Shown in pieces: positions 11,430-17,193 of a stretch of 64,000 nt of DNA; within the stretch, counting starts at the first letter, position 1; each line of letters starts with the position of its first letter. The stretch is taken from positions 576,001 to 640,000 of the forward strand of contig CBDEGZ010000003.1 of the NCBI GenBank assembly GCA_965238175.1, read 5' to 3'. Made by a program: the position numbers and the translations under genes. The DNA is from Gammaproteobacteria bacterium. GTDB taxonomy: Bacteria > Pseudomonadota > Gammaproteobacteria > CAJXQU01. A model generated the notes under the pieces. That model did not search any database. It was not told the origin of the DNA and saw nothing but the letters and a program-made list of their open reading frames with translations.

Positions 11430-12045
11430 TAGAAATACTTATTCGAAATAAGTTAAACAGACTCCCTGAAAACATCAAGAAACGTTCACGTAGTCAGGTT
11501 TAAGCGCTACGAAAAGAAGGTACCCGGACATCCGTTCAGATCGATGTTAAATTCTTATTTTTCAAAGATAAGTATGGAAAGTGAATTAATCGATTTCAGT
11601 ATACCGCCATTGATGTTTGCACGAAAATACGTGCGCTTAAAGTCTACGACAAACATACACAAGCTAACGCGATTAGTTTTCTCAATTATGTCGTCAACAG
11701 TTCCCCTTTCCATATCAAAACCATACGTACAGACAATGGACACGAGTTTCAAACGAAGTTTTATTGGCATGTAGCCGACTTGGGCATGGAGCATGTTTAC
11801 ATTACCAGCATCACCCAGACTGAATAGAAAGGTTGAACGCTCTCACCTTACTGATAAGCGAGAGCTTTACCAGTGCCTCGAATACACAGGTGGTGATGTT
11901 GACCTGAATAAAAAGTTGTCACAGTGGGAAAGCTATTATAATTTTCTACGACCTCATTCAGCACTCCTGGGGAGAGGATCCTTATGAAAAATTTAAGCGC
12001 CGTATACTAGGATAGAGGACGTCTATCGAAGTCGTAGAAAAAACA
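11430..12045 (+). pseudogene. Degraded IS481-family transposase
   Basis: Frameshifted pieces KRYEKKVPGH, IRTDNGHEF and PASPRLNRKVERSHLTDKRE...WESYYNFLRPH. Confidence 0.75.
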
Positions 12046-12194
12046 ATTTATATGTAGAAGTTTATATGTAGAAGTTTAGACCCAATCTGACACATCACTA
12101 AATCAAGCGGAGCGTAGCGACGCTTGATTTAGTGAGAGTTACCCGCTTTGATGTAACTGCAACGTAAACATCAAAACACAAAGAGGTAACTCTC

Positions 12195-13229
12195 ATGATT
12201 CATACTAATGACAAAGTTATAAAACATAAAGTTGGTCTACTCAATCTCGCTGAAGAACTCGGCAATGTCTCAAAAGCCTGCAAGATGATGGGTTTGTCCA
12301 GAGATACATTTTATCGCTACAAAGAAGCGGCTGATGAAGGCGGTGTAGAAGCCTTGTTTGATCGTAATCGGCGTACCCCAAATCTTAAAAACAGAATCGA
12401 CCCGGCTATTGAAACCGTTGTGCTCGAGTATGCACTGGAAGAGCCCGCACATGGTCAAACGCGCACCAGTAACGAGCTGCGCAAACGGGGAACATTTGTC
12501 TCACCCAGTGGCGTTCGTTGTATCTGGCTTCGTCATGGTCTTGCTTGCTTTAAAGATCGCCTGAAGGCATTGTCTGATAAGGTAGCTGGTGAAGGCTTGA
12601 TCCTCACTGAGTCTCAAGTCGCGGCGATGGAACGCAAAAAAGACGACGATGAGGCTTGTGGCGAGATAGAGACGGCACACCCTGGTTATCTTGGCTCGCA
12701 AGATACTTACTATGTCGGTACTTTCAAAGGCATTGGTCGGGTTTATCAACAAACGTTTGTTGATACTTACAGCAAGGTCGCTCACGCGAAACTGTACCCG
12801 ACTAAAACACCGATTACGGCAGCTGACATGCTCAATGACCGCGTCCTCCCATTCTACGAAGAACAACGTTTGCCTATGTTGCGCATTTTGACAGATAGAG
12901 GGACGGAGTATTGTGGGCGAGCTGACCAGCATGATTATCAGCTTTATATGGCGTTGAACAATATCGAACACACCAAAACCAAGGTCAAATCACCTCAGAC
13001 GAATGGTATTTGTGAGCGATTCCATAAGACGATCCTCAATGAGTTTTATCAAGTCGCTTTGCGTAAGAAAATTTACCAATCGATTGATGAACTGCAACTC
13101 GACCTTGACGAATGGTTGCTCAAATACAATACTCAACGAACTCACCAAGGCAAAATGTGCTGCGGGAGGACGCCGATGGAAACACTCATCGACGGACAAG
13201 CTATCTGGAAGGAAAAGTTTGTGAATTAA
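12195..13229 (+). CDS. IS481-family transposase
   Basis: HKVGLLNLAEELGNVSKACK HTH; rve core GYLGSQDTYYVG...LTDRGTEYCG...SPQTNGICERFH. Confidence 0.95.
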   Translation: MIHTNDKVIKHKVGLLNLAEELGNVSKACKMMGLSRDTFYRYKEAADEGGVEALFDRNRRTPNLKNRIDPAIETVVLEYALEEPAHGQTRTSNELRKRGTFVSPSGVRCIWLRHGLACFKDRLKALSDKVAGEGLILTESQVAAMERKKDDDEACGEIETAHPGYLGSQDTYYVGTFKGIGRVYQQTFVDTYSKVAHAKLYPTKTPITAADMLNDRVLPFYEEQRLPMLRILTDRGTEYCGRADQHDYQLYMALNNIEHTKTKVKSPQTNGICERFHKTILNEFYQVALRKKIYQSIDELQLDLDEWLLKYNTQRTHQGKMCCGRTPMETLIDGQAIWKEKFVN

Positions 13230-13322
13230 ACTTAACCTGATGTGATGGTCTCCTCCCCCTAACGGCATCTAGGTGCCATGATTGAACTGACATACACACA
13301 ATCAAAAGAGGAGAAGACCAAA

Positions 13323-14336
13323 ATGAAGACTACAACAATCGGGTTAGACATAGCAAAAAACGTATTTCATGCTGTCTGCTGTAATCAACAAGGGCGTATA
13401 ATCAAAAAGAAAATGTTAAAGCGAGCGCAGGTACTCTCCTTTTTTCAATCTCAACCTCCTTGTTTAGTCGCAATAGAATCTTGTGCAACGTCACAGTATT
13501 GGGCCCGAGCGATACAACAACAGGGACATCAGGTGAAATTACTACCACCTCAGCATGTTAACGCATTTCTAATCGGCAATAAGAATGATTATAACGATGC
13601 CTTGGCCATCGCCGTTGCTGCGAAACAACCTCATTTAAAAAGTGTGGGCATTAAATCAGTTGAGCAACAAGACAACCAGGCACAACATAAAGCAAGAGAC
13701 TTAGCGGTCAGACAAAGAACCGCATTATGTAACCAAATGAGAGCGCTTGTTGCAGAATATGGCATTAGCCTTCGTCCCGGCCTAAATACCCTACGTCAAT
13801 CTATCCCGTTGCTATTAAGTGATGAGAACGAACGGTTGTCCGTTACTTTCAAAAGGATACTGCGCCAGCTAAAGGAACAATGGCAATCACTTGATGCCTG
13901 TATTGCGACATTTGACCAATTGATCATTCAATCGGCAAAAAACAATGCGATTTGCCAACGCTTACAAACTATTCCAGGGTTTGGGCCGATGGTCTCGAGC
14001 GCGTATTTTAATGAAGTGGGAAACGGCGCTCATTATCACAAAGGGCGCGATGTGTCCGCCTCATTAGGACTTGTTCCACGACAGTACAGTAGTGGTGGTA
14101 AAGAGGTGCTACTGGGGATCAGTAAACGCGGCAATAAATACCTTCGTTGTTTGTTAATTCTAGGCGCGAAGGCCGTGGTATCAAGAGCCAAAACGAAAGG
14201 CGATAAACTGAGTCAATGGATTAATCGTTTAGTTGAGACGCGGGGGCATAATCGAGCGTGTGTGGCGTATGCCAACAAAATGGCAAGAATGGCCTGGGCT
14301 ATAACGGTTTCTGGTGATGACTACTCACCGGCCTAA
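13323..14336 (+). CDS. IS110/IS1111 DEDD recombinase (transposase)
   Basis: IGLDIAKNVF, AIESC, KNDYNDALAI, LGLVPRQYSSGGK...GISKRGNKYLR; RBS gaggag upstream of ATG 13323. Confidence 0.95.
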   Translation: MKTTTIGLDIAKNVFHAVCCNQQGRIIKKKMLKRAQVLSFFQSQPPCLVAIESCATSQYWARAIQQQGHQVKLLPPQHVNAFLIGNKNDYNDALAIAVAAKQPHLKSVGIKSVEQQDNQAQHKARDLAVRQRTALCNQMRALVAEYGISLRPGLNTLRQSIPLLLSDENERLSVTFKRILRQLKEQWQSLDACIATFDQLIIQSAKNNAICQRLQTIPGFGPMVSSAYFNEVGNGAHYHKGRDVSASLGLVPRQYSSGGKEVLLGISKRGNKYLRCLLILGAKAVVSRAKTKGDKLSQWINRLVETRGHNRACVAYANKMARMAWAITVSGDDYSPA

Positions 14337-14566
14337 ATAGAGAGAACAAATCATTTCAACGAATTGCGAAGGTAAAACTAAAGATGGCATAACAGGTCAA
14401 ACCAGCCTATTGAAAACCTGTCGAGCTCAGGGGTAACTAATACCGATAACCTGATAAGGAAAATAGGCGCGTAATACATCCAGGTCAGAAGTTGAAAACT
14501 TCATTGAAGGCCGTATATATGACAGCAATCCTGTCCCTGTTATCTGAATGTTTTATCTTGCAATAC
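14337..14566 (+). ncRNA. Putative bridge/seekRNA of the IS1111 element
   Basis: Non-coding region downstream of the transposase. Stem gcctatt/aataggc encloses ctgtc and taacctga (target matches). A second region holds acatc and atatatga (element-end matches) around the hairpin gaagtt-gaa-aacttc. Boundaries approximate. Confidence 0.7.
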
Positions 14567-14702
14567 GGGAGGAGACCATATATGACAGTCGGTTACTGAT
14601 AATTGGGTAACTGTCAGATCAAATCTGAATTTCTACAACTTAACCTGACAGTCGGTTACTGATAATTGGGTAACTGTCAGATCAAATCTGAATTTCTACA
14701 GT

Positions 14703-17054
14703 TTATACTTTGAATCTTACAACACTCGCTTTAAGTTCTTCCGATAATGTCGCTAAAGACAGGCTTTCTGATGATAATTGAATCGCCGCTTCCGAATTTT
14801 GTTCAGATACATCATTGATGCTGACAATGTTGCGATTTATTTCTTCGGCCACAGCGCCTTGCTCATTGGCTGCGATAGCGATTTGCGTTGAAACATGTTC
14901 CAGTTCGGACACTTTCGCAGCAATATCAGATAAAGCTTGACCGGTTGCTTGTGCTTGTTCAACACTTACAACAGCTTGTTGCTTACCTTCAGACATTACC
15001 GTTACCGCTTCTTTCGAACGCGTTTGAAGCCTGCTAATAATAGTTTGTATTTCTTGTGTAGAATCTTGAGTTCGGCTTGCCAGTGACCTTACTTCATCTG
15101 CGACCACGGCAAACCCACGCCCTTGCTCACCTGCCCTTGCTGCTTCTATTGCCGCGTTTAGTGCAAGCAGGTTAGTTTGTTCGGCAATACCCTGGATCAC
15201 ATCCAGCACTGAACCTATACTGTCGCTATCTTTTTCCAATTCATTGATAACATCACCGGCTCTTTCGACGTTAGCTGCAAGCGAGCTTATTTCAGATATT
15301 GTCTCTTCAACCACTTTTGATCCCTGAACCGTTTGTTGATCTGCCTGCTTAGCATACTCAGCACCGTTGGTTGCATTTTTTGCCACTTCTTGCGCAGATG
15401 CTGTCATTTGAGTCATCGCAGTGGCGACTTGTTCAGATTCGGAACGTTGACGATGAGTACTGTCTTGTGCGCTTTGTGCCATCTGGGTTAAGCCTGTCGA
15501 TGATTCCGCCACTTGTGCAGAGGAATCGGAGACATCGCGTATAATCTTGGCAAAAGCGGAAACCAATTTGTTTATTGCATCTGTCAACCGTTCTCCAATA
15601 GGACTGGCACTTGGTTCCAGTTGATTAGTGAGGTCACAGTTTCCAGAATCAATTTCATCGGAAATAGTTTCGATAGAACTGACCACGTAGTCAATTATTC
15701 CGAAAATAAACTTGGCGAATAAGTGACCGATAATGGAAGAGATAAGCCCTACCAAGGCAAGTCCCATCAAACTCCAGAACAATATTTTTTCCGTAAGCCC
15801 AGTTACCCCAGCAAATGCTTCAGATTCATCAATTTCACTAAGGATTACCCAATCTAAACCTTTTATAGATAGCGGCGCATAGGCAGAGACAACCGGCACA
15901 CCTCTATAGTCTGGAAAAATACCCGTTCCAGCCTCACCCGCTAAGGCTTTTTTTGTTCCTGGTGACTGAACAGTTTGCAAACCTATGGTTGTTTCTTTTA
16001 ATGCAATTACATCGACGAGTGCAGAGTCTGTACCAGTACTTTTCAAGACATCAAGATAACCTTGTTTATCATCGACGATAAACCGTCCAAGACTTCGCAT
16101 TTTAGAATCGGAGCCAACAATGTAGGTTTCACCAGATTCTCCCATACCTTGCTGATCCCAGTTTTGACCATAAGTCATAATGCCATTGATACGATCTATT
16201 GGCATCTGAAAAACCAATACACCCACTTTACGACCGTTGTCAAAAATAGGCGAGGCAATGAATGCCGCCGGATCTTCGTATGATGGTGTATAAGGTGCAA
16301 AATCCGTTAGTGCGACCGAAGATTCCCCAGTCGCGGAATTAGCAGCATTAAACACTTTTCCCAAACCACTTTTAGCGTATGGTCCATCAATCAGAGATGT
16401 TGTGTAATCAAGCTCCTTAAAAACTGAATAGACAACATCGCCAGTCTCAGAATCAACCAAAAATATGTCATAGAACTCAAATTTCTGTAGAAAATCTCGA
16501 ATGTGTGGATGATACTTAGAATGCAAAGCAGAGTATTCTGAAGCATCATTAGATGTAATTAGCGCATCTTTTTCACCCAAAGGATTTGGGTTAGCTGTAA
16601 TATATTGATGTTGTAAAGCAATTGAATCCGCATCAAGTGAATTCAAAATCTCGTCAGCGTCAAAATGGGAATCACGGTTCCTTGTTTTATATTTTGCGAG
16701 AAACTGCTCTGTATAATAAGGCTTCAACTCATTTTTTAGCTGCCCTGTATCATATAAGCTTCGATCATTTCGGTATTCTCCAAATGCATTTTTAAACTCG
16801 GTCATAGCATTAATGATCATTGTGTTGTTGGAAAATGTTTGTACCTGACCCTTCAGCGTTTCAAAATACGCTTCAATCTCAGATTTTTTTCCCTCTCGTT
16901 GCGCAACAAGTTTCTCAAGTGCCTGTTCTTCAATGGTAGTACGGCCAGAGTCGACGGCAATCCAGCCAATATAGGTCGCGATAATTGCAGCGGGTAATAC
17001 GCCAAGAAGAATTGACATAAGAACGAGCTTCGTTTTGAGTTGTAAATTAAGCAT
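14703..17054 (-). CDS. Methyl-accepting chemotaxis protein with a periplasmic Cache-type sensor
   Basis: Two TM segments, YDIFLVD Cache motif, [41 protein letters not shown] favours ATG 17054. Confidence 0.95.
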
Positions 17055-17193
17055 TATAATCTCCATCTATGTTACTCAAATATGTATGTATCATTGTGTA
17101 AACTAGCGTCCGTAGAATTTATATCTTTAGTTTTTTTAAGAAATAGTGCTCTATGACTAAATATATCTACTTTTCATATAATTAAAAATGCAA

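Follow-up and report, generated by a model that had tools for sequence, protein, structure and literature searches.

What brings an insertion sequence (IS) of the IS1111 group to the end of another IS is the question raised by positions 13238–14582 of the window, a 64,000-nucleotide (nt) stretch of a Gammaproteobacteria contig. Here, an IS1111-type element lies between ...acttaacc and tgacagtc, 8 nt past the stop codon of an IS481-family transposase gene. A first-pass annotation, made from the window sequence, held that a non-coding RNA in this element is programmed for the IS481 end and that the element is a parasite riding on IS481. Both ideas were followed through the 3.35-Mb genome in which the window lies (C3 is a contig label in this genome). 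Our reading, to which we give a probability of roughly 0.88, is that in this RNA-guided IS1111 element the guides are directed at the terminal repeats of IS982-type elements, and that its copy in IS481 is a rare off-target landing.

The element is a member of the IS1111 group (IS110 family) by all of the defining features that a sequence can test. It occupies 13238–14582 on the plus strand and measures 1345 bp, including the left copy of a TGA core (13238–13240); the second TGA is at 14583–14585. The core is thus present at both junctions, and there is no target duplication. The DEDD recombinase/transposase gene (13323–14336, plus strand) encodes 337 amino acids starting with MKTTT after GAGGAG, and this start is supported by relatives at 49–78% identity that align from MKTTT. 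The protein matches PF01548 (DEDD, RuvC-like, N-terminal; 59.8 bits), PF02371 (IS116/IS110/IS902, C-terminal; 71.8 bits), and NF033542, the 'IS110 family RNA-guided transposase' (302.6 bits, cutoff 140). By eye, GLVPRQYSSG in the translation fits the GL-P----S(t)G motif. Section 6 of PMC11187229 gives this motif as characteristic of the IS1111 group, together with a longer non-coding region on the downstream side of tnp; in this element the left end is 85 nt (13238–13322) compared to 246 nt for the right end (14337–14582), downstream of tnp. Subterminal inverted repeats of 13 bp, ATGGTCTCCTCCC (13245–13257, plus strand) and GGGAGGAGACCAT (14567–14579, plus strand), leave 7 nt outside at the left end and 3 nt plus the core at the right end. 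The same ATGG.../...CCAT repeat pair is found in 63 rows of the alignment of relatives described below. PMC11208160 gives IS1111 subterminal repeats as ~7–17 bp with short extensions outside.

The right-end non-coding region is predicted to encode a structured, two-loop bridge/seekRNA of ~155 nt, modeled at 14389–14543 on the plus strand, as are all of the RNA features that follow. Scanning a single genome for each species yielded 80 related loci with recombinases at 49–78% identity. The eight closest relatives align to the window right end over 192 nt with a mean column identity of 87%, and the variable blocks of this alignment coincide exactly with the expected guide positions. The covariance model R1, which has 156 positions with 35 pairs, matches 79 of the 80 loci and the window (173.2 bits in the window). 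L043 is cut inside the gene, and L080 gave an additional, weak second match. The structure was tested in an 81-row alignment fitted to R1 (74 distinct rows). Standard pairs fill 92.9% of the cells compared to 34–42% with the partners slid, 27 of the 35 pairs show two-sided changes, and the covariation score is 0.383 versus 0.04–0.07 in the slid controls. None of 500 shuffles reached the observed covariation values. An Rfam scan of 11500–15200 matched no bridge-RNA family.

In the model, a closing stem (14391–14396/14536–14541) surrounds a target-binding loop and a donor-binding loop. The target-binding loop (14405–14468) consists of an outer stem, helix 2 (14405–14412/14461–14468), a 3-bp helix (CCT 14417–14419/AGG 14457–14459; 99.5% paired), and a capping hairpin (14431–14445). 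Helix 2 contains the stem gcctatt (14405–14411)/aataggc (14462–14468) named in the first-pass annotation, and that stem is real: all 8 of the helix 2 pairs have changed on both sides, and 98.6% of the cells are paired. The inner helices of the donor-binding loop (14483–14512) are GGTC 14483–14486/GGCC 14509–14512 and a hairpin at 14488–14502; donor-loop helices 5 and 6 are 100% and 98.3% paired, with two-sided changes in three of four and four of four pairs, respectively. A 3' hairpin, GACAG/CTGTC, with a U-rich tail (14521–14535; helix 7, 86.4% paired) is a terminator-like match and a possible 3' end of the RNA. The genome holds 25 copies of the RNA, all within IS copies and all with identical guides. 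The sole variant is an A to G change that corresponds to window position 14508 and falls in none of the guides.

Four guide segments are readable in the two loops. In the target loop, the right-target guide CGAGCTCA (14422–14429) is the complement of top-strand TGAGCTCG, which comprises the core and 5 nt, and the left-target guide TAACCTGA (14447–14454) is the same as the top-strand left flank plus core. The chance expectation for TAACCTGA is 1.84 occurrences per 64 kb on both strands and ~0.004 in 246 nt of one strand. In the donor loop, the right-donor guide UACAUC (14475–14480) pairs with GATGTG at the element left end (13239–13244; the last pair is G-U), and the last 8 nt of the left-donor guide UAUAUAUGA (14514–14522) are the right end ATATA plus the core TGA.

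The target guides were compared with the DNA flanking each related element in the 63 of 81 rows that have an anchored repeat pair and readable flanks, which give 58 distinct rows. Against the left flank of its own element, the left-target guide scores 4.48 of the 5 non-core positions and is perfect in 37 of 58 rows; for the right-target guide and the right flank, the figures are 3.81 of 5 and 25 of 58. When guides were scored against the flanks of other loci, both gave 1.48 of 5, with ~1% perfect. One-base register shifts account for some of the low scores. The substitutions can be followed in single relatives (hyphens mark the junctions): L035 has guides TAACCTCA and GATCTGA with the site GATC-TGA-GGTTA, L036 has guide CGATCTCA with site TGAGATCG, L039 and L040 have guide TATACCCA with site TGGGTATA, and L038 has guide TAACTTGA with site TAACT-TGA. 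The right ends of L091 and L099 are degraded or cut and gave no readable flank. Donor guides track the element ends, in a test that is weaker than the target test since element ends vary little. The donor guide ACATC accompanies the left end GATGT in 8 of 8 distinct rows, left ends GATGA accompany TCATC or TCATT in most rows, and the ATATAC/ATATAT form of the left-donor guide tracks the right end with one clear exception among 46 distinct rows.

These comparisons bear on the individual segments singled out in the first-pass annotation, whose strings and coordinates are all present in the sequence. Its assignment of an IS1111-type element with downstream target and donor loops sharing a TGA core is borne out by the covariance model and the guide tests. 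Its taacctga (14447–14454) behaves as a guide that matches the left target and core and tracks the flanks of the relatives far above the control. Both acatc (14476–14480) and atatatga (14515–14522; ATATATGA) are donor guide segments that track the element ends across relatives. The proposed guide ctgtc (14418–14422) fares differently: the CCT/AGG helix includes C14418 and T14419, and nine close relatives all keep CCTG whatever their target. By estimate and not by computation, a chance match is not improbable for a 5-mer picked from either strand of a 10-nt flank. The covariation with the right flank sits in the adjacent CGAGCTCA, and this segment is the actual right-target guide, which specifies TGAGCTCG.

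Where the element lives in the genome was determined by mapping its copies. It occurs 24 times in full length, and a further copy is truncated at a contig end; their identity is 99.9–100%. The flanks read AACC-TGA in all 24 full copies, with T at −5 in 23, and the right-flank consensus is ACTCGGGATAAG, or TGAACTCG at guide length. This majority target matches the right-target guide at 7 of 8 positions. At least 19 of the 24 full copies lie in a repeat of the type TAACC-TGAACTCGGGATAAG, every one of them pointing inward. The site has at most two mismatches to TGAACTCGGGATAAG in 14 copies, is the right end of an IS982 element (TGAGATCGGTTTAAG) in two, and in three reads TGAAC followed by a later IS481 insertion; likeness to the repeat is partial in one copy (C3:3074123). 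TAA is enriched at −9 to −7 of the left flanks (17, 21, and 15 of 24), outside the guide match, and may reflect the insertion preference of the IS982-type hosts rather than that of the IS1111 element.

The repeat belongs to a second family of mobile elements. The sequence TAACCTGAACTCGGGATAAG occurs in inverted pairs ~190 bp apart that bound palindromic units of ~215 bp, and variants of it also bound elements of ~1 kb whose open reading frame (ORF) is an IS982-family transposase (NF033520, 279.4 bits, cutoff 130). In this genome, TAACC-TGAACTCGGGATAAG is common to the IS982-family elements and to several short, palindromic elements that have no transposase. The IS982 ORF is present, full or frameshifted, in five genomic copies, and three of the five carry the IS1111 element at one end. 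Relatives give a similar picture in part. L061, from a Pseudoalteromonas record, lies where an IS982 homologue of 61% identity ends and has its partner repeat at +993, and L041, from a Paraglaciecola record, is within a unit of ~240 bp resembling a miniature inverted-repeat transposable element (MITE), in which the partner repeat is at +219. In L036 the repeat form recurs, with no partner repeat in the DNA examined, and L037 has none. The targets of more distant relatives are other repeats. The genomes of five relatives each hold one full copy plus fragments and gave no further site statistics. The view of the element as a parasite of another mobile element therefore stands with an IS982-family or MITE-like repeat as the host and falls with IS481 as the host.

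An origin of the target in integron attC sites was examined because the target begins with TAAC and is palindromic. The attC sites by intI read TAACAAG...GGCGTTA, differ from the repeat, and hold no IS copy, and this candidate was rejected. The integron integrase gene itself matches TIGR02249 (396.5 bits, cutoff 265) and adjoins a cassette array. It lies at C3:2174968–2175916, and a separate stretch that contains a TAG accounts for model positions 1–40. The array of small ORFs at C3:2161000–2174800 has two kinds of attC-like repeat, one of ~75 bp (TAACAAGTTGC...GGCGTTA) and one of ~105 bp.

The contribution of the two target guides was assessed by a census of the 214 TAACCTGA sites in the genome, with the RNA's own copies left out, scored on the core plus 5 nt. 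Occupancy rises with the number of matches to the right-target guide: 1 of 107 sites with three matches, 1 of 55 with four, 5 of 23 with five, 7 of 16 with six, and 9 of 12 with seven. A Fisher test of sites with six or more matches versus five or fewer gave an odds ratio of 31 and p = 2e-11. The three IS481-interrupted copies were scored at five matches, which opposes the trend. The census suggests that the two target guides contribute unequally to site choice.

Several observations weigh against our reading. The p-value of the Fisher test is optimistic because sites in repeats are not independent. The only site with eight matches, TAACCTGAGCTCGGGG (C3:393936–393955), is empty, with an IS copy 6 bp away in the inverted half-site. 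The guide has a C opposite an A at +4 of the majority target, which makes the site it is said to be programmed for a 7/8 and not an 8/8 match. Four of the 24 full copies have no recognizable repeat (the window copy, C3:393963, C3:1284574, and C3:1575763), and an inverted partner repeat was found for two of the four close relatives checked. On the RNA side, the structure counts come from an alignment fitted to R1, which favors structure, and 18 of the 81 rows were left out of the guide test for want of an anchored repeat pair or flank.

The empty perfect-match site at C3:393936 would also fit a view in which the target is chosen mainly by the protein, or by the folded shape of the palindromic DNA, and the RNA matches are a by-product. 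Most of the targets do lie in palindromic units able to extrude hairpins. We nevertheless consider this very improbable. The guides and flanks co-vary across 58 distinct elements that have unrelated targets, and the off-target copies in non-palindromic DNA, including that in the window, keep an 8/8 match to the left guide plus core. Experiments described in PMC11187229 also show that the RNA is required and can be reprogrammed in IS1111 members. Guidance by the RNA is thus retained as the preferred explanation of site choice.

The host of the window copy is an IS481-family element whose left part occupies 12067–13240 on the plus strand, with its inverted repeat from 12067, its transposase gene at 12195–13229 (NF033577, 279.1 bits, cutoff 224), and the landing site TAACCTGA at 13233–13240. 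Its right part resumes at 14586–14637 (plus strand) with the right inverted repeat intact, ending TTTCTACA. The first-pass annotation was correct that the insertion leaves the IS481 ORF and inverted repeat unbroken. This precise placement in TTAACC-TGACAGTC, the presence of TAACCTGA in the RNA, and the fact that IS481-type sites are the largest single TAACCTGA class (61 of 214) are what would be expected of a dedicated IS481 rider with an RNA programmed for the IS481 right end (TAACC-TGACAG). The rest of the data make such a rider extremely improbable. Only one of the 61 IS481-type sites (TAACCTGACAGTC) is occupied and 60 are empty; the site is uninterrupted in the 57 other full IS481 copies of the genome. 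The flanks of 23 of the 24 full IS1111 copies are unrelated to the IS481 right end, which is the outcome that the first-pass annotation had named as contradicting its proposal. The right-target guide specifies TGAGCTCG and not TGACAGTC, the window right flank, which it matches at 3 of 8 positions, the core only. A shifted or bulged pairing of this guide with TGACAGTCGG was sought by eye, and nothing convincing was found. The ctgtc string is invariant scaffold. The same guides occur in all 25 RNA copies, and so the window copy is not specially programmed. The IS481::IS1111 composite is a single occurrence in the genome, with no second copy and no sign of movement. We interpret the window copy as a probable off-target event in which the IS481 end happened to match the left guide and core at every position and offered the right guide nothing past the core.

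At this locus, moreover, the IS481 right end is repeated in tandem by an exact copy of 63 bp (14638–14700, plus strand), which has its own empty TAACCTGA site at 14641–14648. The duplicate spans 8 nt before the core to the IS481 tip. A 7-bp duplication, GTTTATA (12060–12066 and 14701–14707), flanks the whole composite and lies outside the 63-bp duplicate. Among the 58 IS481 copies, only the one that carries the IS1111 element has the 63-bp duplicate. This coincidence, together with the start of the duplicate 8 nt before the core and its end at the IS481 tip, raises the idea that the window arrangement arose in a larger recombination event, such as a larger circle or unequal exchange, that also yielded the 63-bp copy. 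PMC11208160 reports deletions and inversions between sites for IS621, and many IS481 copies have unmatched 7-bp duplications, which show frequent exchange between copies. Against this, the two flanks of the IS abut precisely in intact IS481, which is the arrangement expected from a simple insertion, and we could not formulate a one-step mechanism that gives the 63-bp duplicate. Public contigs over 13100–14760 held no record bridging the duplicate, for or against such an event. We regard the larger event as unlikely and favor a simple, off-target insertion of the IS1111 element into IS481.

The data fit a model in which the element would move by RNA-guided, site-specific recombination. In the target loop, CGAGCUCA would pair with the top strand of the core plus right target (TGAGCTCG), and UAACCUGA would pair with the bottom strand of the left target and core (TAACC-TGA). 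The donor-loop guides UACAUC and UAUAUAUGA would pair likewise with the element ends as joined after excision (...CCATATA-TGA-TGTGATGG...). The strands would recombine at the common TGA core, and for this reason no target duplication would arise. The IS would come to lie 5 bp inside the TAACC-TGAACTCGGGATAAG repeat, pointing inward. RNA production, recombinase binding, circle formation, and the chemistry of strand exchange are inferred by analogy with ISEc11, ISKpn4, ISPa11, and IS621.

A possible junction promoter at 14558–14586 (plus strand), recognized by eye, consists of TTGCAA, a 17-nt spacing, and TATGA plus the next base. This last part would read TATGAT on the circle junction compared to TATGAC in the window copy, and CTTGC does not vary among nine close relatives. 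A promoter scan of the integrated context did not report this candidate and gave no plus-strand promoter for the RNA. The end-to-end joint of a circle was not seen in public contigs (three runs from one sample), which drop rare forms. The sole joint that these contigs gave on 13100–14760 connects 13228 to 14637 and is the uninterrupted IS481 end of other copies.

Other traces of the two elements were noted in the genome. IS481 is inserted at an identical place, 5 nt beyond the IS1111 right end (…CCATATATGAAC-IS481), at C3:946626, 1051587, 2867340, and a contig junction near 3332122. The far side of the last reads TATGAAC-TCGGGATAAG, a 7-bp duplication that includes IS1111 bases. This recurrent position could be a preferred IS481 site or the result of repeated rearrangement. 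At C3:1393274–1393339, a 66-bp perfect palindrome joins two inverted IS1111 left ends at a GGCA-TCTAGG-TGCC hairpin with flanks TAACC...GGTTA, and resembles what a deletion between two inward-facing copies would leave. Isolated IS1111 left-end pieces of ~83 bp are present at C3:1154716 and 2897431, and four more are in the relative genome G003. Target duplications produced by the IS481-like element are 7 bp long and AT-rich, and in many copies they are unmatched (cataagt, for example, is split between 1391413 and 2867340); these point to frequent recombination among the 58 copies. Upstream of the window IS481 element, 11500–12066 contains what is left of a further integrase-core (rve-type) IS, whose frames are broken. 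There, TGTAGAA at 12053–12059, read together with the target duplication, imitates the left inverted repeat of IS481, and IS481 thus landed in sequence resembling its own end. Weak Rfam matches to psRNA2 on the IS481 ends (14610–14715 and 11990–12192; 20–25 bits versus a gathering score of 65) raise the idea that this small RNA family may derive from a related IS end. On the minus strand, 14703–17066 is an ORF of 787 amino acids whose end resembles, by eye, a methyl-accepting chemotaxis signaling domain; its stop codon falls inside the IS481 7-bp duplication (14701–14707) at the end of the composite.

Bridge/seekRNA recombinases are under development as programmable genome-editing tools. The element described here has been recently active (25 near-identical copies), its guides are readable from sequence, and it has dozens of natural, retargeted relatives. 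The genome is a ready-made census of on- and off-target sites, and the unequal contribution of the guides matters for off-target prediction. The element adds a case of one IS using the end repeats of another family as a landing pad, and its landings may limit the activity of the host element. The IS982-type repeat is apparently new as a host-element target of an IS1111 guide RNA: a literature search at title level, with ISfinder and paper supplements outside its scope, did not find IS982 ends as an IS1111 target.

A broader proposal would take in a clade of IS1111 elements in marine Gammaproteobacteria (this genome and the Colwellia, Pseudoalteromonas, Paraglaciecola, and Shewanella records). 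In this clade, the bridge RNA would be fixed on IS982/MITE repeats, and the clade would be the second independent case, after IS4321/IS5075, of an RNA-guided IS living on, and probably disabling, the ends of another transposon family. We hold the evidence for and against this proposal to be evenly balanced. If it is true, the 214-site census is a natural specificity profile in which the left guide plus core is obligatory and the right-target guide governs a rate that spans about two orders of magnitude. IS4321 and IS5075 are IS1111 members that reportedly land inside the inverted repeats at the termini of Tn21-type (Tn3-family) transposons. The element resembles them in taking one fixed position and orientation in the terminal repeat of another element, a shared behavior and not a shared clade. 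Its hosts are IS982-family ISs and their MITE-like derivatives, unlike the Tn3-family transposons used by IS4321/IS5075.

The IS1111-attC group (ISKpn4, ISPst6, and ISPa21; Post & Hall 2009 and Tetu & Holmes 2008) reportedly targets integron attC sites. Like that group, the element uses one arm of a repeated, imperfectly palindromic site that begins with TAAC; unlike it, the target repeat flanks an IS982 transposase gene, and the attC sites of this genome are without an IS copy. The element shares its DEDD recombinase, subterminal repeats, and downstream non-coding region with the IS1111 members that have a seekRNA or bridge RNA (ISEc11, ISKpn4, ISPst6, and ISPa11), as these are presented in PMC11187229 and PMC11208160. 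The order of the guides is also that of the IS1111 seekRNAs in section 9 of PMC11187229 and in PMC11208160, with the top-strand match 5' of the bottom-strand match and an overlap at the core. As with these seekRNA elements, the second loop matches the element's own ends and there is no target duplication. It differs from them in its guide pair and its target, TAACC-TGA-ACTCG of the IS982-type repeat, with a 3-nt core. IS621, of the IS110 group, has short subterminal repeats and a CT core. Its RNA is in the left end with the guide order reversed, according to PMC11187229. What the element has in common with the IS621 bridge RNA is the arrangement of two programmable loops, each of which reads both strands around a shared core.

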